A stretch of DNA of 64,000 bases from the NCBI GenBank assembly GCA_964609395.1, contig CAZSRU010000001.1:7324-71323 (forward strand), written 5' to 3'. The translations under genes were made by a program, and so were the position numbers. Shown one piece after another: positions 16,767 through 64,000 of this stretch (position 1 is its first letter; the number at the start of each line of letters is the position of its first letter). This stretch comes from an uncultured Victivallales bacterium (lineage in GTDB: Bacteria; Verrucomicrobiota; Kiritimatiellia; UBA8416). The notes beneath the pieces are model-generated. The model did not search any database and had not been told where the DNA came from. It worked only from the letters and a program-made list of their open reading frames with translations.

Positions 16767-16794
16767 GATTCGGTCCTTGCTGTCTTCGTTGGTG

Positions 16795-17175
16795 TTAGTT
16801 GCCCAGGAGTTCCGCCATTTTAGCCTTGAGGGTTTCGGGGGTGAACGGTTTGACAATGTAAGCATTTGCCCCGCAAGTCAATGCCTCGATGACGTCGTCC
16901 TTCGCCCCTTCTGTCGTTACCATCATGATGGGAACCTTGCCGTAGGACGGCAGGCTGCGAAGTCTCTTGATCAGCTCCAAACCGTCCATGTTCGGCATAT
17001 TCCAGTCAGTCAGCACGCAGTCAAACTGCGCATTCTCGCAAAGCTGGATCGCTTCCTGTCCGTCGGCGGCTTCGGTGACATCGTTGAAGCCGCAGCGGGC
17101 AAGCGTCATCTTGAGGATGCGACGCATGGTCGAGGAATCATCGGCTACCAGTATTTTTGGATCTGATGCGCTCAT
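16795..17175 (-). CDS. cheY: Chemotaxis response regulator CheY
   Basis: 126 aa: ILVADDSSTMRR, LTDWNMPNMDG, PIMMVTTEG, YIVKPF. Confidence 0.9.
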   Translation of the reverse strand: MSASDPKILVADDSSTMRRILKMTLARCGFNDVTEAADGQEAIQLCENAQFDCVLTDWNMPNMDGLELIKRLRSLPSYGKVPIMMVTTEGAKDDVIEALTCGANAYIVKPFTPETLKAKMAELLGN

Positions 17176-17325
17176 AGGCTTTCCATCTGTGCAGGTTTTA
17201 TGAAACTATCTTGATCGGCGAAAAAGAACGAATTGGTGACGTTTAATAGCCTATGTTCGAGCAGAATTCAATCATTAAAACATATGTTATAAACAATCCT
17301 GTGGTGTTTTTTGCCGGTTTGCCGG

Positions 17326-17341
17326 TGGCACTGGATCTGCT
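17326..17341 (+). promoter_or_regulatory. sigma54 promoter TGGCACtggatCTGCT upstream of flgL (-12 C is 14 nt before the ATG)
   Basis: GG at -24 and GC at -12 with exact spacing; 12/16 consensus. Confidence 0.6.
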
Positions 17342-17353
17342 AACAGTCAAGGC

Positions 17354-18280
17354 ATGCGAATTACTCCAGATATGAATATGCGAATGATGTCAGGTGCCAT
17401 GATGCGGCATCAACAAACGTTGTTTGATGTGCGGCGGCAAATGTCTTCTGGACGAAAAGTCAATCTGGCCTCCGATGATCCTGGTGCTTACGAGGCGATC
17501 CAGGGCTTGAAATCGGATTTGTCGCAGTTGTCGCAGTTTGAGCGGAATTCCAATATGGCCCGGCATTATCTAACGATGCTGGATAGCAGCCTGGACAAGA
17601 CCGTGAACCTGGTGCATCAGGCCAGTGAGTTAGCCGTGCGCGCGAGCGATGCCACATTGGATCCCGGCACGCGCGAGGCCATGGCACAACAGGCGGAGCA
17701 ATTGTTGCAGTCGCTTCTGGCCGTGGCCAACAGTTCCGAGGGCGGCCGCTATAATTTTGCCGGCCTGAGGGCGAGTGAGAAACCGTATGTCGAGCAGGTT
17801 GATCCGGTAACCGGTCGGATTACCGCTGTGGTATATGCGGGAAGCGAAGAAACCCGGATGATCAAGATCGGCCCGGAACAATACGCGGCGACCAATATTG
17901 CAGGGAGTCAGTCGGTAGGTGAGGGAGGCATATTCCAGACGTCGACACGAGATTTATTTGATAGTGTGATTCGTTTGCGCGATTCGCTGTCGGCTGGTGT
18001 GAATGGTGCGGAAACCGATAACCTTGAACGGCTGAACGACGACTTGAACCATGTTCTGGGTCAAGTGAGCTTGAACGGAGCCCGGCACGAGCAGGTCAAT
18101 ATGAATGTGTCCTATCTGCGTGAGATGCAATTAACCAACCAGCAATCGCTTGCGACGCTGGATTCCGTTGATATGGCGGAAGCAGCCATGCAGCTTTCAC
18201 AGGCGCAAACGGCCTATCAAGCGGCCCTTCACGGTACTTCAACCCTGATGCAGCAAGTGTCCTTGCTGAATTACATGTAA
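17354..18280 (+). CDS. flgL: Flagellar hook-associated protein 3 FlgL
   Basis: N-terminus MRITPDMNMRMMSG...RKVNLASDDPGAY matches FlgL/flagellin D0; flagellin-type C-terminus. Confidence 0.85.
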   Translation: MRITPDMNMRMMSGAMMRHQQTLFDVRRQMSSGRKVNLASDDPGAYEAIQGLKSDLSQLSQFERNSNMARHYLTMLDSSLDKTVNLVHQASELAVRASDATLDPGTREAMAQQAEQLLQSLLAVANSSEGGRYNFAGLRASEKPYVEQVDPVTGRITAVVYAGSEETRMIKIGPEQYAATNIAGSQSVGEGGIFQTSTRDLFDSVIRLRDSLSAGVNGAETDNLERLNDDLNHVLGQVSLNGARHEQVNMNVSYLREMQLTNQQSLATLDSVDMAEAAMQLSQAQTAYQAALHGTSTLMQQVSLLNYM

Positions 18281-32644: not shown

Positions 32645-32660
32645 AGCACCCTGCGTGCCA
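32645..32660 (-). promoter_or_regulatory. sigma54 promoter TGGCACgcaggGTGCT immediately upstream of flgB (-12 C is 15 nt before the ATG)
   Basis: Exact GG-N10-GC spacing with a TGGCAC -24 element; just downstream of the EBP gene stop. Confidence 0.6.
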
Positions 32661-32668
32661 TAGGCAAG

Positions 32669-34153
32669 TTACAGACCAGCCGGCAGGGAGCCTTCCTCGC
32701 GGTAGCGATTGAGCTTGTTTCGCAGCGTGCGGATGCTCACACCGAGCAGATCGGCCGCCTGGTTGCGCTGCCCATCGGTTTTTTCCATGGCGCGCAGGAT
32801 GGTTTGCCGTTCCAGCGCATCCAGGCATAGCGTCGTGTTGGCTGGGGAGGGGACCGCGCTGTCCGGGGCACATTCGCTCGCTGGCTTGCTTTCGGCGGGA
32901 GGCGTATGGGGGGGACTCTGCGTGGCCGGTTCCAGGATGGCCGAGTTCGCTCGTGTGCAGGTGCTGCCGTGCACTTCTGGCGGTAGCATCGCTGGCGTCA
33001 GTTCCGGCCCCTTTTCCATGACGCAGAGACGCTCAATCAGATGTTCCAGTTCGCGTACATTACCCGGCCAGGTGTAGCGGCACAGGATGTCGAGTGTGTC
33101 CTGGCGGAACCGCAAACCGTCGGTTTTGCCAGTCAGATTTCGAAGGTGCCGTTTGAGAAAGTTGTCTGCCAGCATCGGGATGTCCTCTGGCCGCTCGCGC
33201 AAGGGTGGCACATGGATGGGGACGACATTGAGCCGGTAGTATAGATCCTGCCGGAAGCCGCCCTCGCGCACATAGCTTTGCAGATCGCGGTTCGTGGTGG
33301 CAATGATCCGGCATTCCGCGCGCAGCGTTCGGCTTCCGCCAACACGTTCGAACTCACGCTCCTGAATCACGCGCAGCAGCTTCGCCTGCAGACCGAGCGG
33401 CATCTCGCTGATCTCGTCCAGCAGCAACGTCCCGTTGCCCGCGAGTTCGAAGCGTCCCGGGCGCCGGTTGATTGCCCCTGTAAAGGCCCCCTTCTCATGC
33501 CCGAAAAGTTCACTGTCGGCCAGCGATTCCGGTACGGCCGCGCAGTTCATACGCACAAAAGGACGTTTGCGGTATTCCCCGAGTCCGTGGATGGCCTGGG
33601 CTACTAATTCCTTACCCGTACCGCTTTCGCCTGAGATCAGTACCGTCGAGGAAGAAGCGGCGACGCGTTCAATCTGCTCGATCAGCTTTTGCATGGCGAC
33701 GGTTTGGCCGAGCAGGCGTTTTCCCTTTGGCATCGACCAGCCGAGCTCTTCCTTGAGATAGTCGTTTTGCGCATTGAGCCGCACCCACTCCTTTGCCCGG
33801 TTCAGGACGACTTCCACCTGCTCCGGTGAGAAGGGCTTCATGAGGAAGTCGATCGCTCCCAGTTTCATCGCTTCCACGGCTTGCTCCACGGTGCCGAAGG
33901 CGGTGACCATGACCGTCAGGGTCTCGATACCCGCCTCCTGCTTCCAGCGCAGCAGGTCCATGCCGCCTAGAACCGGCATTTTGATGTCGACGAAGGCCAT
34001 GTCGAAGTCGCGTTCTTCCATCAGTTTCTGTGCCTGTGCCCCATTACCAGCCTGCACCACCTCAATTCCAGCACGTGTGAGGGTTTCCACCACAAATTCG
34101 CGCATCAGTATGTCATCATCAACCACAAGCACGGTTTCAATACTGGAGATCAT
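32669..34153 (-). CDS. sigma54-dependent response regulator (FlrC/FleR-type: receiver + AAA+ + HTH)
   Basis: Receiver domain, GESGTGKE Walker A, GAFTGA-type sigma54 contact loop, C-terminal Fis-like HTH. Confidence 0.9.
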   Translation of the reverse strand: MISSIETVLVVDDDILMREFVVETLTRAGIEVVQAGNGAQAQKLMEERDFDMAFVDIKMPVLGGMDLLRWKQEAGIETLTVMVTAFGTVEQAVEAMKLGAIDFLMKPFSPEQVEVVLNRAKEWVRLNAQNDYLKEELGWSMPKGKRLLGQTVAMQKLIEQIERVAASSSTVLISGESGTGKELVAQAIHGLGEYRKRPFVRMNCAAVPESLADSELFGHEKGAFTGAINRRPGRFELAGNGTLLLDEISEMPLGLQAKLLRVIQEREFERVGGSRTLRAECRIIATTNRDLQSYVREGGFRQDLYYRLNVVPIHVPPLRERPEDIPMLADNFLKRHLRNLTGKTDGLRFRQDTLDILCRYTWPGNVRELEHLIERLCVMEKGPELTPAMLPPEVHGSTCTRANSAILEPATQSPPHTPPAESKPASECAPDSAVPSPANTTLCLDALERQTILRAMEKTDGQRNQAADLLGVSIRTLRNKLNRYREEGSLPAGL

Positions 34154-35753: not shown

Positions 35754-37985
35754 TCATAAGGCGGCTGCCCGTGCCCGCATCGAAAGTTGGTCTGTCTTTT
35801 GGATCCAGTCGCGAAGGGCATCGGCAGAAAGGAGGGTGTCGCCAGCCGGTGTCTGCTTATCGGAGATGGCTTGCCGCCCCATCCACGCCATGACGGTTGC
35901 CGCTGGTTCCTTCGCGATCAGTCGCGTAAGCGTCTGTATCCGGTATTGTTCCAGTGGCAACTGCGCTCGCCAGTACGAATCACTTTCCATTTGCGAAAGC
36001 AGTTGGTCAATACGCCCGTAGGCCTCGTTTTGTATCAACCGGTCCATCACGGCATCTGCCGTGGCCAGCATCAGTGCTTTCGGCGGCTTGGCTGGCGCTG
36101 GGCGAGGGTGGACTGTCGGTTGTGTCGCCAGTGCCGTTAAATCGGGAACCAGAATTTCAAATAGCGTTGTCAGCAAGGCGTCGCCAGAAGGTCCGCAGGT
36201 TTGCCGCCAGCGCCTGATGGCTTCCTTGTGCTGGCCTTGCCGCATGGCAATCGCGGCCCACAACGGTGTCGATTCAGGCCAGATGCCGGCCCACTCGGAA
36301 TGGGTGTTCAGCGTCCGTAGTATCTGATCGGCATCGCGGTCGCGCTCCATGCTTAAGAGCACTCGCGCTTGCCCCAGCATGGCTTGAGCCAGGGTTGAAC
36401 TCTTGTCGCCCGCCTTCTGTGAATGTAAGCTTGCCAACAGGATTGCATGCCTGTAATACGTTTCAGCCGCGGCTGGCAGCGAAAGTTCCTCAAGCCGTTG
36501 GGCGGTGATCAGAAGGCCCTCGGAGCTGCGCTCATCCTGCGGGAATCGCATCGTGGCGTCGATCGCACTTCCAACCAGGCCGGCGGTGGCGTTCGGATCC
36601 TTGGCCAGTGCTTTTAAAAGGCTGTGGCGGGCATGGGTGTCCAATGGTTTGTCTGTGTTTAGCGATATCAGTTTGTAGAGATACCGGACCTGTGCATCGA
36701 GATTACCGCGTCTGGCTGCTAGATCGGCTTGCACTTCAAATTCCTTGGCTGGATTCGTCGCCTTGCTGGCTTGCGCCTGCGCTGCTGCCAGATAGCGTTC
36801 GGCTCGATCCAGTTCATCACGTCCTATTGCCGTTCTGGCGGCACGAACCAGGATGTTGTAGGGCTCTGCTTGCCCAGGCTTCAGCATGCCTAGCTGTCGA
36901 TCAAGCGTTGAGAGGAGTTGGCCTACCCGCGCGGTATCGGTTGTGGACGCGAGTTCATGGCCCAGATCGATCAGAGCCGTTTCCTGTAGATGCGTGTCGG
37001 CGAACATCAGCAGTCTGGCAGCGGCGACATCCTCGATGGATCGTTCCTGCCGCAGCAAGGCAAGCAGACGCTGCGCGGCCTGCCGGCGGCCGGGTGCAGA
37101 GGTGTTGTAGGCCGCTCGCTGAAGAGCGGTAATGGCTTGACTCGTGTTGTTGCTTCTGATGGCGATTTGGGCGAGAATGATCTGCGATTCCTGCATTATC
37201 TGCGAGTTGTTGCTTTGCGCCAATGTGTTGGCGTTCTCGGTCAGTTGCTGTTTTATCTGATCCCGTTTCTCACTGGGTGTTGCCCCTTCGAAATGTGAAC
37301 TGAGCGCATCGAACCATTTCTGGTTTGTGTATATCCGCCAAAGCACTCTGGTCTCACCGTGCAATGCCTTGGTTTGCTGTTCCCCGATCTCGGCAGTTGG
37401 CTTGAGCGCACGAAGGCTTGCATAGGCCGGGGCGGCGTACCCAAAGTCAAATAAGACCTGGAATTCGAGCAGGTTCAAGTCAAATGGCAGTTTGCCTTGG
37501 TCGCGAACCCTCGCGAGAATGCGATTCGCATGCTGTAGGGATTGCTGGTCGCGCAGTTTGCTGGCCAGTTGCAGGAAAACCGTTGCCAAATCGACCGCGA
37601 TGCAATCATCGATATCCTGTTTTACAAGCACGTCCGCGTAATTGGCCGCCATGCGATAACGCTGCCAAGCGGGGCGCCAGTTGTCATCTTTTAGCAGGAA
37701 TTTCGTCATGGCCATAATGGCGGTGTTCTTCTGTTTGGGCGTTTCTGCAATCTCAATGGCATCGCTAAAGAAGATGAAGGCCATGAGCGGATCATTCGCC
37801 TTGTCGCGTTTTTCTGCCCACTGTAGCATCAGAACGTCGGCGGGAGGCAGCTCTTGGATGATATAACGATGGACCATCACTCCGGTCATCGAGGTTGTAA
37901 ACGCCAGGCCGATGCCCATCATGGCCAGTGTAAGAAAAAGTGCGGAGCCTTGCTTCGCGCGAGAATGTCTATTGTGTGCTGTCAT
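35754..37985 (-). CDS. Large single-pass membrane protein with extended alpha-helical (TPR-like) repeats
   Basis: 743 aa; one N-terminal TM helix (ALFLTLAMMGIGLAFTTSMTGVMV) then an Ala/Leu/Gln/Arg-rich helical region. Confidence 0.55.
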   Translation of the reverse strand: MTAHNRHSRAKQGSALFLTLAMMGIGLAFTTSMTGVMVHRYIIQELPPADVLMLQWAEKRDKANDPLMAFIFFSDAIEIAETPKQKNTAIMAMTKFLLKDDNWRPAWQRYRMAANYADVLVKQDIDDCIAVDLATVFLQLASKLRDQQSLQHANRILARVRDQGKLPFDLNLLEFQVLFDFGYAAPAYASLRALKPTAEIGEQQTKALHGETRVLWRIYTNQKWFDALSSHFEGATPSEKRDQIKQQLTENANTLAQSNNSQIMQESQIILAQIAIRSNNTSQAITALQRAAYNTSAPGRRQAAQRLLALLRQERSIEDVAAARLLMFADTHLQETALIDLGHELASTTDTARVGQLLSTLDRQLGMLKPGQAEPYNILVRAARTAIGRDELDRAERYLAAAQAQASKATNPAKEFEVQADLAARRGNLDAQVRYLYKLISLNTDKPLDTHARHSLLKALAKDPNATAGLVGSAIDATMRFPQDERSSEGLLITAQRLEELSLPAAAETYYRHAILLASLHSQKAGDKSSTLAQAMLGQARVLLSMERDRDADQILRTLNTHSEWAGIWPESTPLWAAIAMRQGQHKEAIRRWRQTCGPSGDALLTTLFEILVPDLTALATQPTVHPRPAPAKPPKALMLATADAVMDRLIQNEAYGRIDQLLSQMESDSYWRAQLPLEQYRIQTLTRLIAKEPAATVMAWMGRQAISDKQTPAGDTLLSADALRDWIQKTDQLSMRARAAAL

Positions 37986-39423: not shown

Positions 39424-40800
39424 TCAGATAGTTATGCTGTGATCCTTGATTTTTCTTAGCAAGGAACTGCGATGGATTTTTAGAATTTCGGCCGCTTGGC
39501 CGCGATGTCCGCTCACGTCGCGCAAAACACGCATAATCAACTGTCGTTCGCATTCGGCAAGGCTCATGGATGGAATCTCAGAGGTCTGACCGGTGGGGGG
39601 CTGTGTTTTGGCCGGTGTTGCTTGTTTGCCGTTTGGAATGGCAAGATCCTTGGCATCAATCTCGTTGCCTGTACACAGAATGACGCCGCGTTCGATCGAA
39701 TGGCGCAGCTCACGGACGTTCCCTGGCCAGTCATAAGCGCAAAGTGCTTCCATGGCCGCCGTCGTGAATCCACTAAGGTGGCTGCCTGCTGTTTTTTTGT
39801 GATGATTGAGGCACTGTTCCGCAAGCTTTGGAATACTTTCCGGGTGCTCACGCAGCGGCGGCAGGGTCAGGGGGAAGACCGACAAACGGTAATAGAGATC
39901 CTCGCGGAACGTACCATCCTTTACCATTTCCTGTAGATTGCGGCAGGTGGCGGCGACGATGCGCACATCCACCTGAATGACTCGGCTCCCGCCTAAACGG
40001 CGGAATTGCTTGTCCTCGATCACCTTTAGCAGTTTCGCCTGCAGAGCGGGGGCCATATCGCCGATCTCATCGAGGAAAACCGTGCCGCCATCGGCGATTT
40101 CAAGCAAACCGGGTTTGCTGACCTTGGCATCAGTGAAGGCACCTTTCTCATAACCGAAAACCTCGCTTTCCATCAACGGCCCCGGAATCGCCGAGCAATT
40201 GATGTCGACAAACGGCTTCGCGGCACGTGCGCTGAGGCGATGCACGGCAGACGCCATCATTCCTTTTCCAGTTCCGCTTTCCCCTAAAAGCAGCACCGTC
40301 GTGTCGGGGAAGGCGGCAATGCGCTGTACTTTTGTAAAGAGATCACGCAGGGCTCCGCCGCCAATCATCTCGTCGAGCTGCCAGACGTCGCCGCCGGAAC
40401 CGGTCGATAGCCGCGCGAGTCCCTCCACGCGCTCTTCCATGTTGACCGCTTTCTCAACATTACGGATGATTTTCTCAAGTTGCTCGTTTTCGTACGGTTT
40501 AGGTAAGTAGTCGTAGGCCCCGCTGCGAATGGCTTGAATGGCTGATCTGACATCGCTGTGGCCGGTTACAAAAACAACGTAAGCTCCCTTTGATAAGCCG
40601 TTGATCTCTTCAAGGAAATGGAAACTGTCGCCGTCGGGTAATCGCCGGTCAAGAAAGATCAGCTTGAATTGATTATCCTTCAGTCGGCTGCGTGCTTCGC
40701 TTAACGAATCGCAGGCTTTGACGTCGTGGCCTTTGCGCTTTAAAAGGTCAAACATGACCTTGCGCTGGATTTCGTCATCTTCAACGATTAGAATATCCAT
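39424..40800 (-). CDS. sigma54-dependent response regulator (NtrC/FlgR-family, second copy)
   Basis: Receiver + AAA+ (GESGTGKG) + GAFTDA + C-terminal HTH. Confidence 0.9.
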   Translation of the reverse strand: MDILIVEDDEIQRKVMFDLLKRKGHDVKACDSLSEARSRLKDNQFKLIFLDRRLPDGDSFHFLEEINGLSKGAYVVFVTGHSDVRSAIQAIRSGAYDYLPKPYENEQLEKIIRNVEKAVNMEERVEGLARLSTGSGGDVWQLDEMIGGGALRDLFTKVQRIAAFPDTTVLLLGESGTGKGMMASAVHRLSARAAKPFVDINCSAIPGPLMESEVFGYEKGAFTDAKVSKPGLLEIADGGTVFLDEIGDMAPALQAKLLKVIEDKQFRRLGGSRVIQVDVRIVAATCRNLQEMVKDGTFREDLYYRLSVFPLTLPPLREHPESIPKLAEQCLNHHKKTAGSHLSGFTTAAMEALCAYDWPGNVRELRHSIERGVILCTGNEIDAKDLAIPNGKQATPAKTQPPTGQTSEIPSMSLAECERQLIMRVLRDVSGHRGQAAEILKIHRSSLLRKIKDHSITI

Positions 40801-41561: not shown

Positions 41562-43475
41562 TCACAGCGTGGCGTGCCACAGGCACAAGTTCACGATCGG
41601 CCATAGTTTCATGGGGTGGACCGTCATGCTGCCGTTCAGCCAGGCATCAACCGCGATCGGGTTGAATAGCGTGTGCCGAAGGGGCGATGTCGCAATTGCC
41701 TCCCTGATCATGGGATTCATCCACGTGTCCATCCAGTCGAAAACAGGCACGGGGAAGCTCATCTTCGGGCGCTGCAGGATCGACGTCGGGACCGAATCGG
41801 TATAGGCGTGGCGTAGCAGCCGTTTGGATTCGATCAGATCCTGTTGTACAATCTCCATCACGTTCAGCCCCTGCGCGGCAATCGCACCAGCCGGTTGCCG
41901 CCAGTCCAGGCGGTAGGTGTCCGGCAGCGAGAATGCAAAATCAACCAGCCGGTGATCGGTAAACGGGACGCGCGCCTCGACGGATGCGGCCATGGAACTG
42001 GAGTCCACCCGCAGGAGCAAGCCTTCGAGGTTGACGCGCAGGTGGGCAAGCATGATGCGGTCCAGGGTGGATGCATCCGGGTGGCGGCTGTAGAGTTGCT
42101 GATAGAAGGCTCGGATGGCATGGTCGTTGTGCAGGCTGGCCGTGATATCCGGATGCATCCAGAGTTGCTTCTCCGGCGTGGACATCCAGGTGTTCAGCAG
42201 CAGGTGCTGGGTGGCCAGATCCGGCAGGTGCGCTTGTCCATAGCCGCGCAGTAGCGCCTGATCGGTCGCATTCATACCTGACTCAGGCTTTGGTGAGCGC
42301 GAAGCCCGGTCGAAGTCATGGGCCGCGAAATAGGCAATCGTGTAACCGCCGAAGATCTCGTCGGCACCTTCGCCGCTCAAGGCCACCGTGTATTCCTCGC
42401 GCAGTGCTTTTGAAAGCATGTAGATCGGCACTTCGTTAGGGGTGGTGAGAGGGAGACCGTTCTGGCGTATCAAAAAATCCCACAATGCGGGGTAATCGGC
42501 CGAGTCAAGCGTGATTTTGCGGCACTTCATACGGTAGGCGTCAGCCGCCTCTTTCACATACGGGAATTCGTTGAACCCGGGTTGCGCGTAGCCCACGTTA
42601 TAGGCGTGAAAGTGGTTGTCCGTGAGGGTGCTGGCCTGTTCTGCAATAATGGTTGAATCCAGGCCGCCGCTGAGAAAACCGCCCAGCGGAACGTCGCTGA
42701 TCAGGCGCAGCCGTACCGCCTCCTTGATCAAGTCGCGCGTTTCTTCGGCCGCCGCTTCCAGTGAGAGCCGTGATTTGTCCTGCGGTGCAGGGCAGGATGG
42801 TGCCCAATAGCAGCCGCCATGCTGCCCGCCGCTCGCGTCGATGCGCATCCAGTGGCCGGGTTCCAGCAAGTGCACGCCGCTGAGCAGGGTATCCTGCCCG
42901 AGATTAACCCGTATGGTGGATAGGTAGTGGGAGGCGGCCGAAGCGTCAAGTGCGGGTTTTTCCGGCAGCAGGGCCAGCAATGCGCGCATCGACGAGGCAA
43001 AACAGAACGTCTTGCGTTGCTGTGCCCAGAATAGCGGCTTTACGCCCAGTCGGTCGCGGGCCAGGAAGAGTGCGCGGTGGCGGGGGTCATAAATGGCGAA
43101 GGCAAACATGCCGAGGAGTCGGTAAATGCAGGCCGTGTCCCACTCCAGAAAGGCGTGCAGCAGCACTTCGGTGTCCGAATGGGTTTGAAATGCGTGTCCC
43201 GCGGCTTGCAGCTCGGTGCGCAATTCCCGGTAATTGTAAATCTCTCCATTAAAGACGATTACCGATCCGGTTTGCGGATCCACCAGCGGCTGGTGCCCGC
43301 CGTCGATGTCGATAATGGCCAGGCGTCGGTGCGCAAGCCCTATGCGGTCTGTGTGGAATTGCCCCTGATCGTCCGGGCCGCGCAAGGCCATGCAATCGGC
43401 CGCATCCTGAAGCCGCGGCAGCCACTGCTCGCAAGGAAGTGCGGTGGGGGAGGCGTAGCCGGCAATACCGCACAT
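41562..43475 (-). CDS. Asparagine-synthetase-family glutamine amidotransferase, PseA-like candidate flagellin-glycan modification enzyme (start moved to MCGIAG ATG 43475, RBS AGGAG)
   Basis: N-terminal Ntn Cys (MCGIAGY), PP-loop SGGLDSS; adjacent to fliD and flagellin. Confidence 0.75.
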   Translation of the reverse strand: MCGIAGYASPTALPCEQWLPRLQDAADCMALRGPDDQGQFHTDRIGLAHRRLAIIDIDGGHQPLVDPQTGSVIVFNGEIYNYRELRTELQAAGHAFQTHSDTEVLLHAFLEWDTACIYRLLGMFAFAIYDPRHRALFLARDRLGVKPLFWAQQRKTFCFASSMRALLALLPEKPALDASAASHYLSTIRVNLGQDTLLSGVHLLEPGHWMRIDASGGQHGGCYWAPSCPAPQDKSRLSLEAAAEETRDLIKEAVRLRLISDVPLGGFLSGGLDSTIIAEQASTLTDNHFHAYNVGYAQPGFNEFPYVKEAADAYRMKCRKITLDSADYPALWDFLIRQNGLPLTTPNEVPIYMLSKALREEYTVALSGEGADEIFGGYTIAYFAAHDFDRASRSPKPESGMNATDQALLRGYGQAHLPDLATQHLLLNTWMSTPEKQLWMHPDITASLHNDHAIRAFYQQLYSRHPDASTLDRIMLAHLRVNLEGLLLRVDSSSMAASVEARVPFTDHRLVDFAFSLPDTYRLDWRQPAGAIAAQGLNVMEIVQQDLIESKRLLRHAYTDSVPTSILQRPKMSFPVPVFDWMDTWMNPMIREAIATSPLRHTLFNPIAVDAWLNGSMTVHPMKLWPIVNLCLWHATL

Positions 43476-43491
43476 GGGGACGCTCCTGCCG

Positions 43492-44967
43492 TTACTTGCT
43501 GCCGTTGAGCTGGCCCAACAGGAATTCGAACCCCGACTGCATTTTGCCGATGGCCTCATCCATGGCACCGAACTGACGCCAGAGCATCGCTTCTTTCATC
43601 TCCAGTTCCCGCGTCATGCGGTCAATCCGTTCGTCCTGGCGAGTGATCTCATCATTGATATTCTCAATGCCGACATCAATCCATCCGTCGAGCTCCGAGG
43701 CGTAATTCTTGGTTTCCGTATAAATGGAAAGGGCGATGCCGCCTTCGCGTACGCCGGCCTGTGTTTCGGAGGGAACGCCCCGGAAAAGATTTTCAACCTC
43801 AGTGGGATATTGCTCCAACATGGCATCGAGGCGTTCTTCGTCGATAATGGCCAAGCGGTTCTGTTCTCCCTGGGTCCAGATACCGATGTGTTGGAGAGAA
43901 TCCATGACTCCCTGTGCCCCGTTGAACGAATACCCTGCATTATCAGCCGTGTGGGTACTGTTCATCAGTTGCCCGGCCAACCCACGCAATTTATAGGTGA
44001 TTTCGCGCATCATACTGTTGTCTTGCAGCATGCCAGGTAAAGGGTTCGATGGATCGCTGCGATCCCAGGTCCCGTAGAACTCATTGACTTCCGCAGCCGT
44101 GTTGTAGGCTTCTATGAAGGTGTTGATCGACTCCTTGATCGCGGCATTATCCCGCCCCACCTTGATTTCGCTGTATCCGGTGTCGTACAAGTTCAGCGTG
44201 ACGCCGTCGACAATATCGGATAGACCGGTGTTGGACGAGCGGGTAACCGTGGCACCATTCACCTTGAATTCGGCATTCTGGGCGGATAGCAATTCGTTGG
44301 TGACCGTGCCAAAGGCGTCCAGGACGCCGAGGCTGAGCAGAGGGGTTCCGGCCGTGTCGGAGATGGAAATGGTATCCGAGCCAGTGTTGACACGCTGAAG
44401 GACGAGCCGATTATCAAGGATCGATGCGGTCACTTGGTCGGCTTCCGGCATAAGCTCGGTGGCCGCATTGATTTTGTCGCGTAGCGAGGACAGGGTTTCC
44501 GTATTACTGATGGTAAAGGTCTGGCCGCCGATGGCGAACTGGTCTCCGAGGCTGACGCCGGCAATGGTGGTCAGGAGCGTGGAGGAGGTCACGGGGGCCC
44601 CCCCCGAGTCGGTCAGTCCGGTAGCGGAGGCAATCGTTTGTGCGCGAGCCAGTTGCGTGACTTCTATCGTATAGGTATTGGCGGCGGCATTGGCGGCGGC
44701 GGTGGCGGTCGCCACTGAGGAATCGGTGCTAGTGGACGCCATTTTACGCCAGACATCCATCCAGCGCAGGCTGTCGGAGGCGCGCGTCAGGGCGCTAAGG
44801 TTGTCCTTTACATCAATCCATGCCGTGACCTTATCATTGCGCAAGGACTGTTCGTCCTGCACTTTTTTAACGCGGCTGCCTTCCATCTCCATGATTTTGG
44901 CGATGGTGGCACCTACATCGAACCCGGAAGCGAGTCCGCTGATACGAAAATCGGGTGTAACACTCAT
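43492..44967 (-). CDS. fliD: Flagellar filament cap protein FliD
   Basis: 491 aa; N-terminus ISGLASGFDVGATIAKIMEME and coiled-coil C-terminus typical of FliD. Confidence 0.9.
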   Translation of the reverse strand: MSVTPDFRISGLASGFDVGATIAKIMEMEGSRVKKVQDEQSLRNDKVTAWIDVKDNLSALTRASDSLRWMDVWRKMASTSTDSSVATATAAANAAANTYTIEVTQLARAQTIASATGLTDSGGAPVTSSTLLTTIAGVSLGDQFAIGGQTFTISNTETLSSLRDKINAATELMPEADQVTASILDNRLVLQRVNTGSDTISISDTAGTPLLSLGVLDAFGTVTNELLSAQNAEFKVNGATVTRSSNTGLSDIVDGVTLNLYDTGYSEIKVGRDNAAIKESINTFIEAYNTAAEVNEFYGTWDRSDPSNPLPGMLQDNSMMREITYKLRGLAGQLMNSTHTADNAGYSFNGAQGVMDSLQHIGIWTQGEQNRLAIIDEERLDAMLEQYPTEVENLFRGVPSETQAGVREGGIALSIYTETKNYASELDGWIDVGIENINDEITRQDERIDRMTRELEMKEAMLWRQFGAMDEAIGKMQSGFEFLLGQLNGSK

Positions 44968-44982
44968 GGTGCTGATGTGGCT

Positions 44983-44998
44983 AGCAGGGTTAATGCCA
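44983..44998 (-). promoter_or_regulatory. sigma54 promoter TGGCATtaaccCTGCT upstream of fliD (-12 C is 17 nt before the ATG)
   Basis: Exact -24/-12 spacing; core GCTAGCAGGGT shared with the LysM-operon promoter. Confidence 0.6.
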
Positions 44999-45111: not shown

Positions 45112-46050
45112 TTAACCGATCAACTGCAGCACGCTCTGCGGCAAGGCGTTTGCCTGTGCCAGCATAGCGGTACCGACCTGCGTCAGGATCTGCTGCTTCA
45201 TGAAGTTCGTGGATTCCAAGGCCATATCCGTGTCGCGGATCTGGCTCTCAGCACCCATGATGTTCTCCTGATAGCTGCGGATACCTTCCAGCGAATGGCC
45301 AAGCCGACTGGCCTCGGCACCCAGCGTCGCCCGCGCCTTGCTGAGGTGGTCGACCGCCAGTTTCAGCACGGCGGTTGCGCGCTGCGCACCTGCCATGGTC
45401 GAAATCTGGATGCCGCCACCGATGTCCGAGATTCCGCGTGCAAGCACCATCGACCAGTGGATTTCCTGCTGAGTCGTTACCGCGCCGACACCCGCGAACT
45501 GACCGCACGAGAACGTGATGAACGTTTCGCCGAGAACGGCCGTGCTGTTGGCATGCAGTGCCAGCGACGTTCCGCAGAACAACTGTCCCGGATCCGCGCC
45601 GACCTGAGTGACCAAACCATTGCTACCCTGGAACAAATTGGCTGTGTTGAATTTACCGCGCGCCAAACTGCCGGTTGTGATTCGTGTGATTTCCGCCTGC
45701 ATCTGCTCAAATTCCACCTGCAGATTGTCGCGGTCCGTCTGTGTTTTCGTTCCATCGGCCGATGCCACGGCGAGTTCGTTCATCCGGTGCACCATATCGT
45801 GGATCTTCTGCATCCAGGAATCCGCCGTACGCATGTAAGCCTGGGCATTCTGGATGTTCTGAGCCGCCATGCTCGAATTGCGGATCTGCGAACGCATACG
45901 TTCGCTCATCGCCAAGCCAGCCGGATCATCCGACGCCGTCGTGATGCGCAAACCGCTGGACAGCTTGCTCATCGATGAGCGCATGCTATTCACGCTGGAC
46001 GCATAGTTAACCCACACACCGAACGCGGGAACGTTATTGTATACTTGCAT
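45112..46050 (-). CDS. fliC: Flagellin (short D0-D1 type), paralog 1 (start at MQVYNN ATG 46050, RBS GGAGG)
   Basis: Flagellin N-terminus (KLSSGLRITTASDDPAGLAMSERMRSQIRN) and C-terminus (STNFMKQQILTQVGTAMLAQANALPQSVLQLIG). Confidence 0.9.
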   Translation of the reverse strand: MQVYNNVPAFGVWVNYASSVNSMRSSMSKLSSGLRITTASDDPAGLAMSERMRSQIRNSSMAAQNIQNAQAYMRTADSWMQKIHDMVHRMNELAVASADGTKTQTDRDNLQVEFEQMQAEITRITTGSLARGKFNTANLFQGSNGLVTQVGADPGQLFCGTSLALHANSTAVLGETFITFSCGQFAGVGAVTTQQEIHWSMVLARGISDIGGGIQISTMAGAQRATAVLKLAVDHLSKARATLGAEASRLGHSLEGIRSYQENIMGAESQIRDTDMALESTNFMKQQILTQVGTAMLAQANALPQSVLQLIG

Positions 46051-46453
46051 GATCTTCCTCCGTGATTTTGTCTTCACTTTTGAATTTTCACCTTAAGAGT
46101 TAGCATCCTTGCTTTCTCTGACTTATGCCGCTATCCGTTTTCTTTGGGTCGCTTATGCCGGAGGATTGCGAGCTCTATGCCGGTTTCCTCGACCCCTCGC
46201 GATGTTGTAATCTATTTCCGAGTTCCATTCCCCCCTTTTCTTTTGACTGACGCTTAATCTGGACGGCCGACACCGCATCGGCCTCCCCGCACAGTCGTAG
46301 ATTCGGTATCCAGACCCCGGTGCTTAAACAAGGCATCATATTTTCCAGCGATCTGCGGTGGCGTCGGCAGAAGTTGCCCATCGCGGTAGGGGTGCCGCCC
46401 GCGGTGATGGCAGTATTTTCCGTTTCAAGGGCTCTGATCATGCAGTTTCCGTG

Positions 46454-46469
46454 TGGCATCCGTGGTGCT
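46454..46469 (+). promoter_or_regulatory. sigma54 promoter TGGCATccgtgGTGCT upstream of fliW-csrA
   Basis: Exact spacing; ~70 nt before the fliW ATG. Confidence 0.5.
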
Positions 46470-46537
46470 TTAGAGAAGCAGCCAAGTCGAGAGGCAACGC
46501 GAACACGGAGGCGGTAAAACAAACGAGGGACGCAGCT

Positions 46538-47062
46538 ATGAACACGAAGTCGATATACGAAGACGCGATTGTTGTTAAACCTTATTCGAGGCTGGTCTCC
46601 TTGACGATCCGGCCGGAGCATGTATTCCATCTCCCGCAAGGCCTGCCTGCCTTTGAGGGATTCAAGAATTACATTTTCACGATCAAGCCGGATACCAGTC
46701 CATTTATTTTCATGCAATCAATTGAGCCCGCCGGCCTTTCGTTTGTCTGTATTGACCCCTTCCTGGTGTATCCGGATTATGCGCCCCGTATCGGGACCGC
46801 CGACCAGGATCTTCTTCGTCTTGCCCGCCCGGAAGCGCTGATGTTGTTAAGCATCGTGACCGTGCGCGCCGATGAACGCGAAACAACGGCGAATCTACAG
46901 GGACCCCTGGCGATCAATATTGAAAACTCGATCGGCAAGCAGATTCTCTGCGATGGGCAGACTTATCCGGTGCGGTATAGGATCTGGGATGCCATCAGCC
47001 AGGACGAAACGACGCTCGATCAGGCTTCCGTGCGGTACGGCATTGAGTATGCTAGCGCATAG
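46538..47062 (+). CDS. fliW: Flagellar assembly factor FliW (CsrA antagonist); start moved to MNTKS ATG 46538 (RBS GAGGGA)
   Basis: FliW-family sequence (FEGFKNYIFTI...LLSIVTVRAD...TANLQGPLAINI) directly upstream of csrA. Confidence 0.85.
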   Translation: MNTKSIYEDAIVVKPYSRLVSLTIRPEHVFHLPQGLPAFEGFKNYIFTIKPDTSPFIFMQSIEPAGLSFVCIDPFLVYPDYAPRIGTADQDLLRLARPEALMLLSIVTVRADERETTANLQGPLAINIENSIGKQILCDGQTYPVRYRIWDAISQDETTLDQASVRYGIEYASA

Positions 47063-47132
47063 ATGGAACGGGGCATGATGAGAATGGCAGCTAATGGTTT
47101 ATTGAAAACGCGACAGGCCAAGGAGGGCCGCT

Positions 47133-47366
47133 ATGCTAGTACTGACAAGGAAGTTGGAAGAGAGCGTGATGATCGGCACGGACATCGAGGTGCGCGTACT
47201 GGGGGTACATGGCGATCAGGTGCGATTGGGTTTTTCGGCACCTAAAACGGTTTCGGTTTTCCGCAAGGAAGTGTTCGATGCGATTCAGGAGGAAAATCGG
47301 CAGGCGGCCAGTCCGGACAAGGTTGGACTGGCGGCGTTTGCCGAATCGTTTAAACGACGGGGTTAA
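47133..47366 (+). CDS. csrA: Carbon storage regulator CsrA
   Basis: MLVLTRKLEESVMIGTDIEVRVLGV...VRLGFSAPKTVSVFRKEV matches CsrA almost residue-for-residue. Confidence 0.95.
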   Translation: MLVLTRKLEESVMIGTDIEVRVLGVHGDQVRLGFSAPKTVSVFRKEVFDAIQEENRQAASPDKVGLAAFAESFKRRG

Positions 47367-47517
47367 TCCAAGGTCCGTTCCAGGGCTGGATTATGGAAAG
47401 GAGGTGACGGGAGTCAGTCGGGGTTGGAATGCACTGCCGCCGGTGCAGTGCACAGGGCGCCATGGGCGGTCTGGAGTGATGCCGGTGTTGTAAATGAGGA
47501 TTCAATGCTAACAAGAA

Positions 47518-47553
47518 GGGGCAAGGACGCCCCAGATTAAAAATCAAGGAGGA
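47518..47553 (+). promoter_or_regulatory. Putative CsrA binding sites in the flagellin 2 leader: GGA in a hairpin loop (GGGGC-AAGGAC-GCCCC) plus GGA overlapping the Shine-Dalgarno AAGGAGG
   Basis: Stem-loop 47518..47533 with an AAGGA loop; second GGA at the SD 47546..47553; arrangement mirrors known CsrA-hag regulation. Confidence 0.5.
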
Positions 47554-47561
47554 GAGAGAAA

Positions 47562-59845: not shown

Positions 59846-60001
59846 ATGAAAGCATTCGTTAAGCGGGAAGAGAATTTGAAATCCAAGGTGACGGTCAAGA
59901 AAAGCACGGTGGCTACCGACTGCTTGCAACAGGCAGCCGATTGGCTGGGGCTTTACAGTCGTATTCTTGAGAACCTACAGGTGGCGAGGGCCGCCCGGTG
60001 A
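59846..60001 (+). CDS. Small 51 aa ORF with strong RBS (AGGAGG), stop overlapping the GTG start of the next gene
   Basis: GGAGG 7 nt upstream of the ATG; GTGA overlap with the HAD-like gene; below the ORF-track size cutoff. Confidence 0.35.
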   Translation: MKAFVKREENLKSKVTVKKSTVATDCLQQAADWLGLYSRILENLQVARAAR

Positions 60002-60714
60002 AGACCCCCGGCGAGAATGCAGCTTTGCATGCATCCCGCTCAGCATCTCCAACGGTCATTTGCTGGCTGGATGATGTGCTTTATCCCGCGCGCATGTATC
60101 ATGAAGGTGCCTGTCGCGCCGGGGCGGGATTGCTGCGTCACCTGATCGGTGTCGATATGCATGACGCCCTTTCGGTCTGCTACGTTCCGGGACGAGAAGA
60201 GGATACGGTACGCAAGGTCCTTTCAGGCGTCGGCACGAAAACCGATGAACGGCTCGTCCGCAAGGTTGCCGAGGCCATGGCTGTGCATACACCGCAGGTT
60301 TCCCCCTATGCGGATGCGCTTGAGACCTTTGGGATTCTACAGGCGCTCGGGGTTTCGCTCTGGTTGCTTGGCGAAGGACCGCCACGCGCACAGCGCTTGG
60401 TTGCTGATCGACTGGGGCTTGGCCGCGTGTTTCAGGGGGTGGCTTATTCGGATCCTCACCAGAGTAAATACGAATGGCAGGATTCTCTGATGCTACTGGA
60501 GCTCGCCGCCGGCGTGGAGGCCGATCAGTCCGTGCTGGTGTGTGCCGATCCGGTCCGCGTGGCCGCCATCGCGAAGCAGGGCAGGCGTGTCTATTACCTT
60601 GATCGAAAGGCGGATCCGATCGCCCGCCGCCCGCCGGTTCCTAACGTGATCCCGATGCTGAACCTATACGACCTGCCGGAGGCGCTGGGGTTAGTGGCCT
60701 GGGATCGGAATTGA
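59998..60714 (+). CDS. HAD-superfamily-like hydrolase (degenerate motifs)
   Basis: N-terminal VICWLDDVLYP (motif I-like) and C-terminal VLVCADPVRVAAIAKQG (motif IV-like). Confidence 0.45.
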   Translation: MKTPGENAALHASRSASPTVICWLDDVLYPARMYHEGACRAGAGLLRHLIGVDMHDALSVCYVPGREEDTVRKVLSGVGTKTDERLVRKVAEAMAVHTPQVSPYADALETFGILQALGVSLWLLGEGPPRAQRLVADRLGLGRVFQGVAYSDPHQSKYEWQDSLMLLELAAGVEADQSVLVCADPVRVAAIAKQGRRVYYLDRKADPIARRPPVPNVIPMLNLYDLPEALGLVAWDRN

Positions 60715-60837
60715 CGCGCTCCGTATGTCGCAATAAGCGACAGGAATCAACTGGACCGATGTGTGCGCCTTTTTTGGTTAAAACGTAATATGTTTATAAT
60801 TAGATAGTTGCGCTAATATTCTGACATTGTTAAAGGT

Positions 60838-60853
60838 TGGCACGCATATTGCA
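60838..60853 (+). promoter_or_regulatory. Consensus sigma54 promoter TGGCACGcataTTGCA upstream of rpoN, preceded by a ~60 nt AT-rich tract
   Basis: Perfect match to TGGCACG-N4-TTGCA; 53 nt upstream of the rpoN ATG. Confidence 0.7.
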
Positions 60854-62443: not shown

Positions 62444-62465
62444 GCATTTGGAGAACGCTGGCGTG

Positions 62466-63182
62466 ATGAATGTAGCCATTATACCTGCACGCGGTGGCAG
62501 TCAACGGATTCCACTCAAGAATATCCGTGAGTTCTGCGGGAAACCGATGCTGGCCTGGTCGATAGAAGCGGCGCTGCAGAGCCGTTGTTTCGCGCGCGTT
62601 ATCGTTTCAACCGATAATCAGGAAATCGCCGATGTGGCCAGGCATTATGGTGCTGAAGTCCCGTTTCTACGGCCGCGTTTGCTGGCCGATGCACACACGG
62701 GATTAGAGGCCGTGATCTGGCACGGGGTTGAATGGCTGGATGCGGCAGGCATGGATCTGAACTATGTCTGCTGTGTTTTTGCAACCGCGCCATTCCTGAC
62801 ATCCGCGGCACTGCGGGACGGCTTGGCTGCTCTAGAGCAGGCTCCGCTCCGCCAGTTTTCAATTTCCGTGACCAGCTATCCATTCCCGGTTCAACGTGCC
62901 GTCCGGATAACCGCCGATGCCTGCATCGAGCCCTTGTATCCTGAATTCATGAAAACCCGGTCGCAGGATTTGGAAAGCGCGTTTCACGAGGCCGGTCAGT
63001 TTTTCTGGGCACGGCCAGAGGCGCTTCGCCAGCGACTATCGGTCTATGCGCCGGGCGCGTCGGCACCGGTTGTGATTCCGCGTTGGCGGGTCCAGGATAT
63101 TGACACCATGGAAGACTGGGCGCAGGCGGAGCTCCTCTTCCGCGCATTAAGGACGGTGCCGGATGATGCGAATTGCATTTAG
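62466..63182 (+). CDS. pseF: CMP-nonulosonic acid synthetase (NeuA/PseF-like acylneuraminate cytidylyltransferase); start moved to ATG 62466
   Basis: N-terminal nucleotide-binding motif VAIIPARGGSQRIPLKNI and the CMP-NeuAc synthetase fold. Confidence 0.75.
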   Translation: MNVAIIPARGGSQRIPLKNIREFCGKPMLAWSIEAALQSRCFARVIVSTDNQEIADVARHYGAEVPFLRPRLLADAHTGLEAVIWHGVEWLDAAGMDLNYVCCVFATAPFLTSAALRDGLAALEQAPLRQFSISVTSYPFPVQRAVRITADACIEPLYPEFMKTRSQDLESAFHEAGQFFWARPEALRQRLSVYAPGASAPVVIPRWRVQDIDTMEDWAQAELLFRALRTVPDDANCI

Positions 63183-64000
63183 AACCGATGCTTCTGTCAA
63201 GATCGGGGTCGGGCATGTGGTTCGTTGCCTGAATCTCGCTCGGGCATTGCGTGCGCAAGGGGAGCAGGTTTCATTCCTGTGCCGGGAGACCGAGGGGCAT
63301 GCCGGAGCGCTGATTGCCGAAAACGGTTTTCCAGTACATCTGCTTCCGGTAACGGACGGCGGCGGGATACATCATCCGCATGGGCAGGGTGCCTGGGGGC
63401 GGCGCGAGGCGTTGATGGATGTCGAGGCTTGTTGCTTGCATCTGAAAGAGCAGATGGATTGGCTTGTCGTTGATCATTACGGTTTGGACGTCTGCTGGGA
63501 AACGGCAATACGAGCCAAGGCGGCGCGGATCATGGTCATTGATGATCTTGCCGACCGCCCGCACGATTGTGAGCTGTTGCTTGATCAGAATCTCCTGCCG
63601 TCACTTGAAACACGCTACCTCCAGCGCGTGCCCACGCACTGTCGTTACCTTTTGGGTCCCGGTTATGCATTGCTCGATGACGCCTTCGGCAGGTTGGCCT
63701 GCCAGGCAGGCGTACGTCACCATGTGCAGCGCCTGCTAGTATTCTTTGGTGGGGGGGATGAAGGCAACCTGACCGCCCGTGCATGGCGTGAATTGGATGA
63801 ACTCGGGCTTGAAGGCGATGTTGTCGTCGGTAGAGCAAATCCTCATCTGCCCGAGGTGGAGTCGCTTTGCAATAAAAATGCGTCTCGCTGGACGCTGCAT
63901 GTGCAGACAAGACAAATGGCGGAATTGATGCTGCAAGCCGATTTGATGGTTGGTGCAGGCGGCTCCACGCACTGGGAACGCTGCCTGCTCGGGTTGCCTT
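63163..64000 (+). CDS. pseG: PseG-like UDP-sugar hydrolase (UDP-2,4-diacetamido-2,4,6-trideoxyhexose hydrolase), 3' partial at window end
   Basis: N-terminus MRIAFRTDASVKIGVGHVVRCLNLARAL and C-terminal GAGGSTHWERCLLGLP match the PseG family; overlaps the pseF stop by 20 nt. Confidence 0.75.
   Translation, partial: MMRIAFRTDASVKIGVGHVVRCLNLARALRAQGEQVSFLCRETEGHAGALIAENGFPVHLLPVTDGGGIHHPHGQGAWGRREALMDVEACCLHLKEQMDWLVVDHYGLDVCWETAIRAKAARIMVIDDLADRPHDCELLLDQNLLPSLETRYLQRVPTHCRYLLGPGYALLDDAFGRLACQAGVRHHVQRLLVFFGGGDEGNLTARAWRELDELGLEGDVVVGRANPHLPEVESLCNKNASRWTLHVQTRQMAELMLQADLMVGAGGSTHWERCLLGLP

Follow-up and report, generated by a model that had tools for sequence, protein, structure and literature searches.

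A predicted sigma-54-driven rpoN-pseF-pseG unit at the end of a flagellar supercluster from an uncultured bacterium

Pseudaminic acid (Pse) biosynthesis and Maf transferases are established in Campylobacter, Helicobacter, Aeromonas and Shewanella (PMC3426422, PMC4065374, bioRxiv 10.1101/2023.12.03.569772). Here, a stretch of 64,000 nucleotides from contig CAZSRU010000001.1 (the window, meaning the whole of the DNA analyzed) was examined for two genes of this pathway, pseF and pseG, which follow the sigma-54 gene rpoN at its right-hand end. The flm locus of Aeromonas caviae comprises flmA, flmB, neuA, flmD and neuB, plus maf1 (PMC3426422, PMC4065374), and the motility island of Shewanella oneidensis carries Maf-1, and Maf-2 plus GlfM (bioRxiv 10.1101/2023.12.03.569772). 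In Helicobacter pylori, a sigma-54-driven flaB-jhp0106 (maf/pseE) operon places a flagellin-glycosylation gene under sigma-54 control (PMC5368276). Copies of rpoN within flagellar clusters were described as rpoN2 in Xanthomonas oryzae (PMC5550985) and Cereibacter sphaeroides (cited in PMC12316311), and an in-silico survey found that rpoN in Verrucomicrobiia tends to be preceded by a sigma-54 promoter (PMC12316311).

The literature already covers flagellin-glycosylation genes under sigma-54 and a predicted autoregulation of rpoN in Verrucomicrobiia; new here is the sigma-54 promoter ahead of this rpoN, with pse genes behind it. A full-text literature search turned up neither pse genes joined to an rpoN unit nor flagellin glycosylation in Verrucomicrobiota, which is weak evidence. 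The window is one flagellar and chemotaxis supercluster of ~60 kb. In our reading, rpoN-pseF-pseG is its last transcription unit and is sigma-54-driven, with cytidine monophosphate-activated Pse (CMP-Pse) made via PseG, PseI and PseF and transferred by Maf onto flagellin; the probability of this reading was put at about 0.6. What is shown rests on metagenomic sequence: which genes these are, the promoter motif with its conservation, the close junctions and the synteny.

Genes, junctions and promoter of the rpoN-pseF-pseG unit

Coordinates and model scores are given in Table 1. To the right, the window was extended with JGI metagenome contig Ga0207193_1000150 (120,508 bp; the source contig), which carries the exact PseF protein and has 1 mismatch to the last 11.5 kb of the window, and further walking was done via exact-sequence protein ids. 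PseF, PseG and PseI all scored above the curated cutoffs of their equivalog hidden Markov models. For PseF, the TIGR03584 score was 290.7 bits (cutoff 205.7, residues 3-226 of 238 covered), KdsB and other cytidylyltransferase models were far under their cutoffs, and the closest solved structure was PDB 9FTB 'NeuA' (E = 1.3e-65 over the full length). By family membership, PseF is a predicted CMP-Pse synthetase. The PseG fragment in the window (279 of 359 codons) scored 270.4 bits against TIGR03590 (cutoff 153.55), and the full-length protein from the source contig (359 aa, gene end at window-equivalent position 64242) scored 288 bits. PseG also matched the Campylobacter jejuni PseG structures 3HBM/3HBN (E = 1.1e-17, GT-B fold), and the N-terminal G-x-G-H motif was kept ('IGVGHVVRC' aligned to 'IGFGHIKRD' of 3HBM). 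The His of this motif is the proposed catalytic base of C. jejuni PseG. As the PseF and PseG scores are far above the cutoffs, chance matches are of no concern. The enzymes are canonical and belong to known families; the host lineage is new, and the regulatory arrangement is neat but unsurprising. A preliminary description of the window had placed pseF-like and pseG-like genes behind rpoN in the same direction, with the window ending inside pseG; coordinates and names were correct, and the end of the window does fall within pseG. Its interpretation overall was partly supported, as set out below.

The pseF and pseG genes overlap by 20 bp, with pseG beginning 20 nt before the pseF stop. No terminator-like site was predicted on the + strand from rpoN to the end of pseG; scans of the region for sigma-70 promoters and intrinsic terminators gave counts equal to those of shuffled sequence and are negative evidence only. 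GC content and GC at third codon positions (GC3) of pseF and pseG were those of their neighbors, and thus gave no sign of recent transfer. With a shared strand, minimal spacing, no terminator and adjacency conserved across lineages, rpoN, pseF and pseG are probably co-transcribed.

The 190-bp intergenic spacer ahead of rpoN (40% GC) contains TGGCACGCATATTGCA ~50 nt before the rpoN ATG, with GG at -24, GC at -12, exact spacing and the right strand, as in a sigma-54 promoter. The pattern TGGCACG-N4-TTGCW (12 specified bases) was expected 0.01 times in 64 kb and found once. Transcription of rpoN-pseF-pseG probably starts from this sigma-54-type promoter. The window and L006, L007, L008 and L011 (RpoN identity of these relatives, 55-96%) all have a -24/-12 motif that starts 62-68 nt ahead of the rpoN ATG, with diverged flanks. 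Since the motif was kept while the spacer diverged, the sigma-54 promoter of rpoN is the older, conserved feature. A palindrome upstream of it, TGTCGCAATAAGCGACA, is a candidate enhancer, and in L006, L007 and L008 a palindrome of the same type precedes the promoter by 112-137 nt. As a regulon-wide activator site, TGTCG-N7-CGACA was rejected (6 matches vs. 2.6 expected with one mismatch allowed, not clearly enriched) and was retained as a local lead only.

The wider pattern TGGCAY-N6-TGCW, chosen after the first matches had been seen but equal to the textbook GG-N10-GC core, gave 11 exact matches in the window (0.72 expected; 0 of 100 shuffles reached 11). All 11 are sense-oriented and lie just upstream of gene starts, and the rpoN site has TTGCA at the -12 element, where the other ten have TGCT. 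The flagellin genes, maf and pseI have no such motif ahead of them. The window encodes two sigma-54 activators (32669-34153 and 39424-40800), and the gene for a third is found just left of the window. The public starts of flgB (ATG 32661) and of the 116-aa open reading frame (ORF; GTG 51654) fall within -24 elements (32645-32661; 51654-51670), so these start codons are probably mis-called.

The preliminary description had proposed that glycan supply is coupled to sigma-54 levels. Co-transcription is plausible from the 22-bp gap, the 20-bp overlap and the lack of a predicted terminator, but the pse genes are probably coupled to the activity of sigma-54 and not to its level alone, because the unit itself starts at a conserved consensus sigma-54 promoter.

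Relatives, close and distant, were collected by RpoN searches. The closest (L006/L010, one contig of a metagenome-assembled genome (MAG) under two accessions; RpoN 96% identical) has the order flgK, 51-aa ORF, HAD, rpoN, pseF, pseG, pseI, ATP-grasp, HAD. In L011 and L012 (RpoN ~66% identical to the window, 89% to each other), rpoN-pseF-pseG has a 6-9 bp gap and a 4-bp overlap, and is followed by Obg in L011 and by an acetylglutamate-kinase-like gene in L012. The unit is found in four contigs of two lineages (window, L006/L010, L011 and L012) with 6-22 bp gaps and 4-20 bp overlaps, and the genes after pseG vary among these contigs (pseI, Obg or the acetylglutamate-kinase-like gene). Judged by this synteny, the appended pseF-pseG pair, common to two sublineages, behaves as a unit with rpoN. 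The order flgK, 51-aa ORF, HAD, rpoN was kept in L006, L007, L008 and L011, even where pseF and pseG are missing (L007, L008). Distant RpoN loci (40-47% identity) mostly lacked both the promoter motif and pse genes, and were uninformative.

Table 1. Features of the window and its right flank, with the evidence for each
Feature	Position	Strand	Evidence or remark
Sigma-54 (-24/-12) promoter of rpoN, TGGCACGCATATTGCA	60838-60853	+	Sole exact match to TGGCACG-N4-TTGCW in window
Palindrome TGTCGCAATAAGCGACA, candidate enhancer (activator-binding site)	60726-60742		Exact TGTCG-N7-CGACA, ~112 nt upstream of -24 element
rpoN (sigma-54), 512 aa	60905-62443	+	TIGR02395 367 bits vs. cutoff 277; Pfam Sigma54_AID, CBD, DBD
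rpoN-pseF spacer, 22 nt	62444-62465	+	Ribosome-binding site (Shine-Dalgarno) GGAGA; sequence read
pseF, CMP-pseudaminic acid synthetase (pseudaminic acid cytidylyltransferase), 238 aa	62466-63182	+	TIGR03584 equivalog
pseG, UDP-2,4-diacetamido-2,4,6-trideoxy-beta-L-altropyranose hydrolase (UDP, uridine diphosphate)	63163-64000, leaves window	+	TIGR03590 equivalog
maf, putative flagellin nonulosonic-acid transferase, 604 aa	49057-50871	+	PF01973 MptE-like 114.5 bits vs. 34.6
flaB, flagellin, 313 aa, presumed acceptor	47562-48503	+	Flagellin_N, Flagellin_C
flaA, flagellin, 312 aa, presumed acceptor	45112-46050	-	Flagellin_N, Flagellin_C
AsnB-type amidotransferase, 637 aa	41562-43475	-	TIGR01536 413 bits vs. 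267; GATase_6/7 + Asn_synthase
-24/-12 motif ahead of flgI	56425-56440	+	TGGCAY-N6-TGCW
-24/-12 motif ahead of fliD	44983-44998	-	TGGCAY-N6-TGCW
-24/-12 motif starts, all 11, ahead of (in order) fliO, flhB, flgL, fliK, flgB, fliD, fliW, 116-aa ORF, flgF, flgI, rpoN	7044, 9387, 17326, 25877(-), 32645(-), 44983(-), 46454, 51655, 53158, 56425, 60838		TGGCAY-N6-TGCW
HAD-like hydrolase, 238 aa, upstream neighbor of rpoN	59998-60714	+	Weak HAD matches
51-aa ORF, upstream of HAD-like gene	59846-60001		Conserved neighborhood of rpoN
Right of window, in order: full-length pseG, 224-bp spacer, pseI, ATP-grasp ligase, HAD hydrolase, convergent hybrid histidine kinase gene			Source contig
Glycan cluster, first genes: FAD oxidoreductase, GT2, TagD-like cytidylyltransferase, TagF-like glycerophosphotransferase	L027 8038-19119 (whole cluster)		~8-19 kb right of window end
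Glycan cluster, later genes: 894-aa GT2 + C-terminal Capsule_synth, GT1, FkbM methyltransferase, then 3025-aa CBM_X2 surface protein			Same cluster

Transferase, acceptor and proposed mechanism

The maf gene lies between flaB with its following 157-aa ORF and fliS; the Maf named in the preliminary description was borne out, with an MptE-like domain and a gene beside the flagellin genes. The match of Maf to the PseD model NF050051 was weak (47 bits vs. cutoff 670), so the protein is a family member and not a PseD orthologue. With Maf beside two flagellin genes, the locus is best read as serving O-glycosylation of flagellin with Pse. The 157-aa ORF (48584-49057), which overlaps the maf start with its stop, and one of 99 aa behind fliS (51335-51634) had no family match, and either could be a Maf accessory factor of the GlfM/FliT type. 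The flagellin genes flaA and flaB are near-identical, in opposite orientations, with fliW-csrA between them (45112-48503). Both genes have a GGA-rich leader ahead of the start codon, in keeping with FliW/CsrA control of flagellin translation.

PseI, just beyond the window, scored 467 bits against TIGR03586 (cutoff 340), and the NeuB model stayed under its own cutoff. In the preliminary description the pathway also included a 'PseA-like' gene. That gene (41562-43475) is a glutamine-hydrolysing asparagine synthase of AsnB type; no PseA-type family was among its matches, and it was rejected as a PseA. It is directly downstream of fliD, behind a -24/-12 motif, with kinase-like and sigma-54 activator genes next on the same strand (41562-44998), a position that hints at a flagellar or glycan-related role.

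In the proposed mechanism, for which we infer co-transcription, activator dependence, flagellin as the acceptor and the timing, sigma-54 holoenzyme with a cluster-encoded enhancer-binding activator would transcribe rpoN together with pseF and pseG. PseG would strip UDP from UDP-2,4-diacetamido-2,4,6-trideoxy-L-altrose, PseI would condense the product with phosphoenolpyruvate (PEP) to pseudaminic acid, PseF would activate this to CMP-Pse, and Maf would move Pse onto Ser/Thr residues of flagellin before export. The sugar donor may be made with the sigma-54-driven flagellar genes, before its acceptor: as the donor genes have sigma-54 motifs and flagellin and maf do not, donor supply may switch on before the acceptor. 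A stronger version, in which rpoN-pseF-pseG of one verrucomicrobial lineage is a single self-activating mRNA and a positive-feedback module, possibly for a flagellum-dedicated sigma-54, tying donor supply to flagellum commitment ahead of flagellin and Maf, is offered tentatively and regarded as rather doubtful.

If the mechanism is true, Maf/Pse-type flagellin glycosylation reaches uncultured Verrucomicrobiota, and the locus is a clean natural case of a sigma factor co-transcribed with the metabolic supply for the structure under its control. In practice the value is modest: the 11 predicted sigma-54 promoters give a regulon map for the flagellar cluster in a poorly studied phylum, and the rpoN autoregulation site is testable.

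The supercluster contains che genes, fliOPQR-flhBAFG-fliA, flgL, fliNML-motBA and a flgB-to-flgE block in its first part. Two sigma-54 activators with kinases, fliD and the two flagellin genes around fliW-csrA follow, and the last part comprises maf, fliS, flgFGAHI-flgN-flgK, the 51-aa ORF, the HAD-like gene and rpoN. The host is an uncultured bacterium and probably a member of Verrucomicrobiota; the nearest taxonomically named RpoN relatives are Verrucomicrobiota MAGs. Three HAD-family hydrolase genes surround the rpoN/pse genes (window 59846-60714 region; L001 14060-14719; L001 17302-18024). A 743-aa ORF without family match (35754-37985, - strand) lies among flagellar two-component and activator genes. 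Between cheX and flgL (window ~16770-17400), the JGI contig is 106 bp longer than the window, as inferred from coordinate offsets, and the response-regulator gene there, a 256-aa ORF and flgI are non-identical between the two. From this length difference and the non-identical genes, the window is a close variant of the JGI contig.

Points against the mechanism and competing explanations

Several observations weigh against the proposed mechanism. The preliminary description called for a rightward extension to seek the remaining pathway genes, and this returned pseI; pseB, pseC and pseH were not found in ~99 kb of the 120.5-kb contig (the window, the right flank and 7.6 kb left of the window; contig position 21.5 kb to the 120.5-kb end, plus overlapping contig L009), where the expected domains (dehydratase/epimerase, DegT-type aminotransferase, GNAT) were sought among the gene calls. 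In the proposed pathway, the early steps PseB, PseC and PseH would have to be encoded elsewhere in the genome. Two unannotated ORFs (157 aa and 165 aa), considered as a possible divergent PseH, were matched by no NCBIfam model. Secondly, an insertion of ~180 bp separates pseG and pseI in the source contig (L001 11778-12000; window-equivalent 64243-64465). It carries a hairpin with a 24-bp perfect stem (z = -8.9 vs. shuffles) and no T-run after it. L006, the 96%-identical relative, lacks the insertion and has a pseG-pseI gap of ~45 bp. Thirdly, a third lineage (L007 and L008, RpoN 55-56% identical) has flgK, the 51-aa ORF, HAD and rpoN with the same rpoN promoter and no pse genes behind rpoN; opposite-strand genes come next in L007. 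Fourthly, if this rpoN is the sole copy, a purely sigma-54-dependent promoter has a start-up problem, and a second promoter is likely; sigma-54 sites ahead of rpoN can also act as autorepression sites, and this one could then be dual-purpose or repressive. Lastly, an 894-aa protein of the right-hand glycan cluster might draw on CMP-Pse as well.

No further copies of the hairpin insertion were found in the window or the other fetched loci, so it is no dispersed repeat. An Rfam scan from rpoN through the HAD gene gave only sub-threshold miRNA-like matches on this hairpin, which were taken as chance. Repeated palindromes TTTTCCACA-N-TGTGGAAAA were seen after rpoN in L007 (11519-11640) and L008 (7506-7630), and could be terminators or binding sites.

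The 894-aa protein leads to the alternative that survives best, although it is unlikely: the right-hand cluster would take most of the CMP-Pse, or a share of it beside flagellin, to build a glycoconjugate outside the flagellum (a polymer resembling capsule or teichoic acid, or a surface-protein glycan), and the gene content of the cluster (Table 1) speaks for it. The TagD-like glycerol-3-phosphate cytidylyltransferase scored 157.9 bits (cutoff 165.4). The 894-aa GT2 protein, ~14 kb beyond the window end, scored 44 bits against Capsule_synth (vs. 20) and is KpsS/Tanf_01245-like, so that Pse could also serve another glycan. A transferase of Pse or legionaminic acid (Leg) derivatives, Tanf_01245, is known from Tannerella, and BFO_1060 (strain FDC 92A2) is its homologue (PMC5420450). 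The 894-aa protein matched the BFO_1060 family weakly (E = 6e-5), but far under the 200-bit cutoff. Furthermore, a convergent histidine kinase gene, a HAD gene and a divergent AAA gene intervene, so the cluster is not in the pse operon, and the right-flank gene calls included no genes for polysaccharide export (Wzx, Wzy, KpsMT or similar). Maf adjoins the flagellin genes, and in L011 and L012 pseF-pseG stays attached to rpoN and the flagellar cluster and is followed by housekeeping genes. Within the cluster, a C2185-like N-terminal domain is common to three proteins (JGI precomputed Pfam). The set of cytidylyltransferase, phosphotransferase and methyltransferase resembles the type A flagellin glycan genes of Clostridioides difficile.

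Less probable again is an adjacency without regulatory meaning, with a pse promoter inside the 3' end of rpoN, or with the -24/-12 site serving autorepression over a housekeeping promoter. A cell's sole sigma-54 gene cannot depend only on sigma-54, negative autoregulation of rpoN occurs in some Proteobacteria, and weak sigma-70-like hexamers (CTGACA-18-CATATT and TTGGCA-16-AATCAT) overlap the site. However, sigma-70-like matches were at the shuffled level (6 vs. 6.0), and the hexamer spacing was not kept in L007 and L008. The rpoN site shares the orientation of the other ten motifs, with a start-codon offset in their range, and an rpoN-pseF gap of 6-22 bp is too short to hold an intergenic promoter.

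A nonulosonic acid other than Pse5Ac7Ac, or an incomplete pathway with PseH replaced or the product decorated by ATP-grasp, HAD and AsnB-type enzymes, is improbable: the missing PseB, PseC and PseH, the two unmatched ORFs, the ATP-grasp and HAD genes directly after pseI and the AsnB-type gene directly downstream of fliD are in its favor, but PseG, PseI and PseF exceed equivalog cutoffs that single out the Pse route, other bacteria such as H. pylori also have their pse genes dispersed over the genome, and the ATP-grasp protein matched only the uncharacterised structure 2PN1 in a PDB search.

Comparison with described systems

As in the rpoN2 systems of Xanthomonas and Cereibacter, rpoN lies inside the flagellar cluster under its control, and as in the Verrucomicrobiia survey a sigma-54 promoter precedes it. 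The window differs from the rpoN2 systems in the pse genes behind rpoN; the full-text literature search returned no report of such an arrangement, again weak evidence. Aeromonas caviae is comparable in having compact Pse genes together with a Maf transferase that acts on polar flagellin, and the PseF of the window is nearest to 9FTB 'NeuA'. The five biosynthesis genes of Aeromonas form one locus, whereas here only the last three steps stand with the flagellar cluster, joined to rpoN. In Shewanella oneidensis, pse genes and maf likewise lie inside one large flagellar island, and the small unannotated ORFs near maf and fliS in the window (157 aa, 99 aa) are a further likeness; the pse genes there are unlinked to rpoN.

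The C. jejuni and H. pylori systems have the same PseG, PseI and PseF equivalogs, and maf beside a flagellin gene as in the window. They differ in that PseB, PseC and PseH were not found locally here, and that the present host is uncultured and probably belongs to Verrucomicrobiota. H. pylori also resembles the window in having glycosylation genes under a sigma-54 promoter of the flagellar hierarchy; in the window, however, this promoter precedes donor-synthesis genes and not the transferase, on a predicted shared transcript with rpoN.

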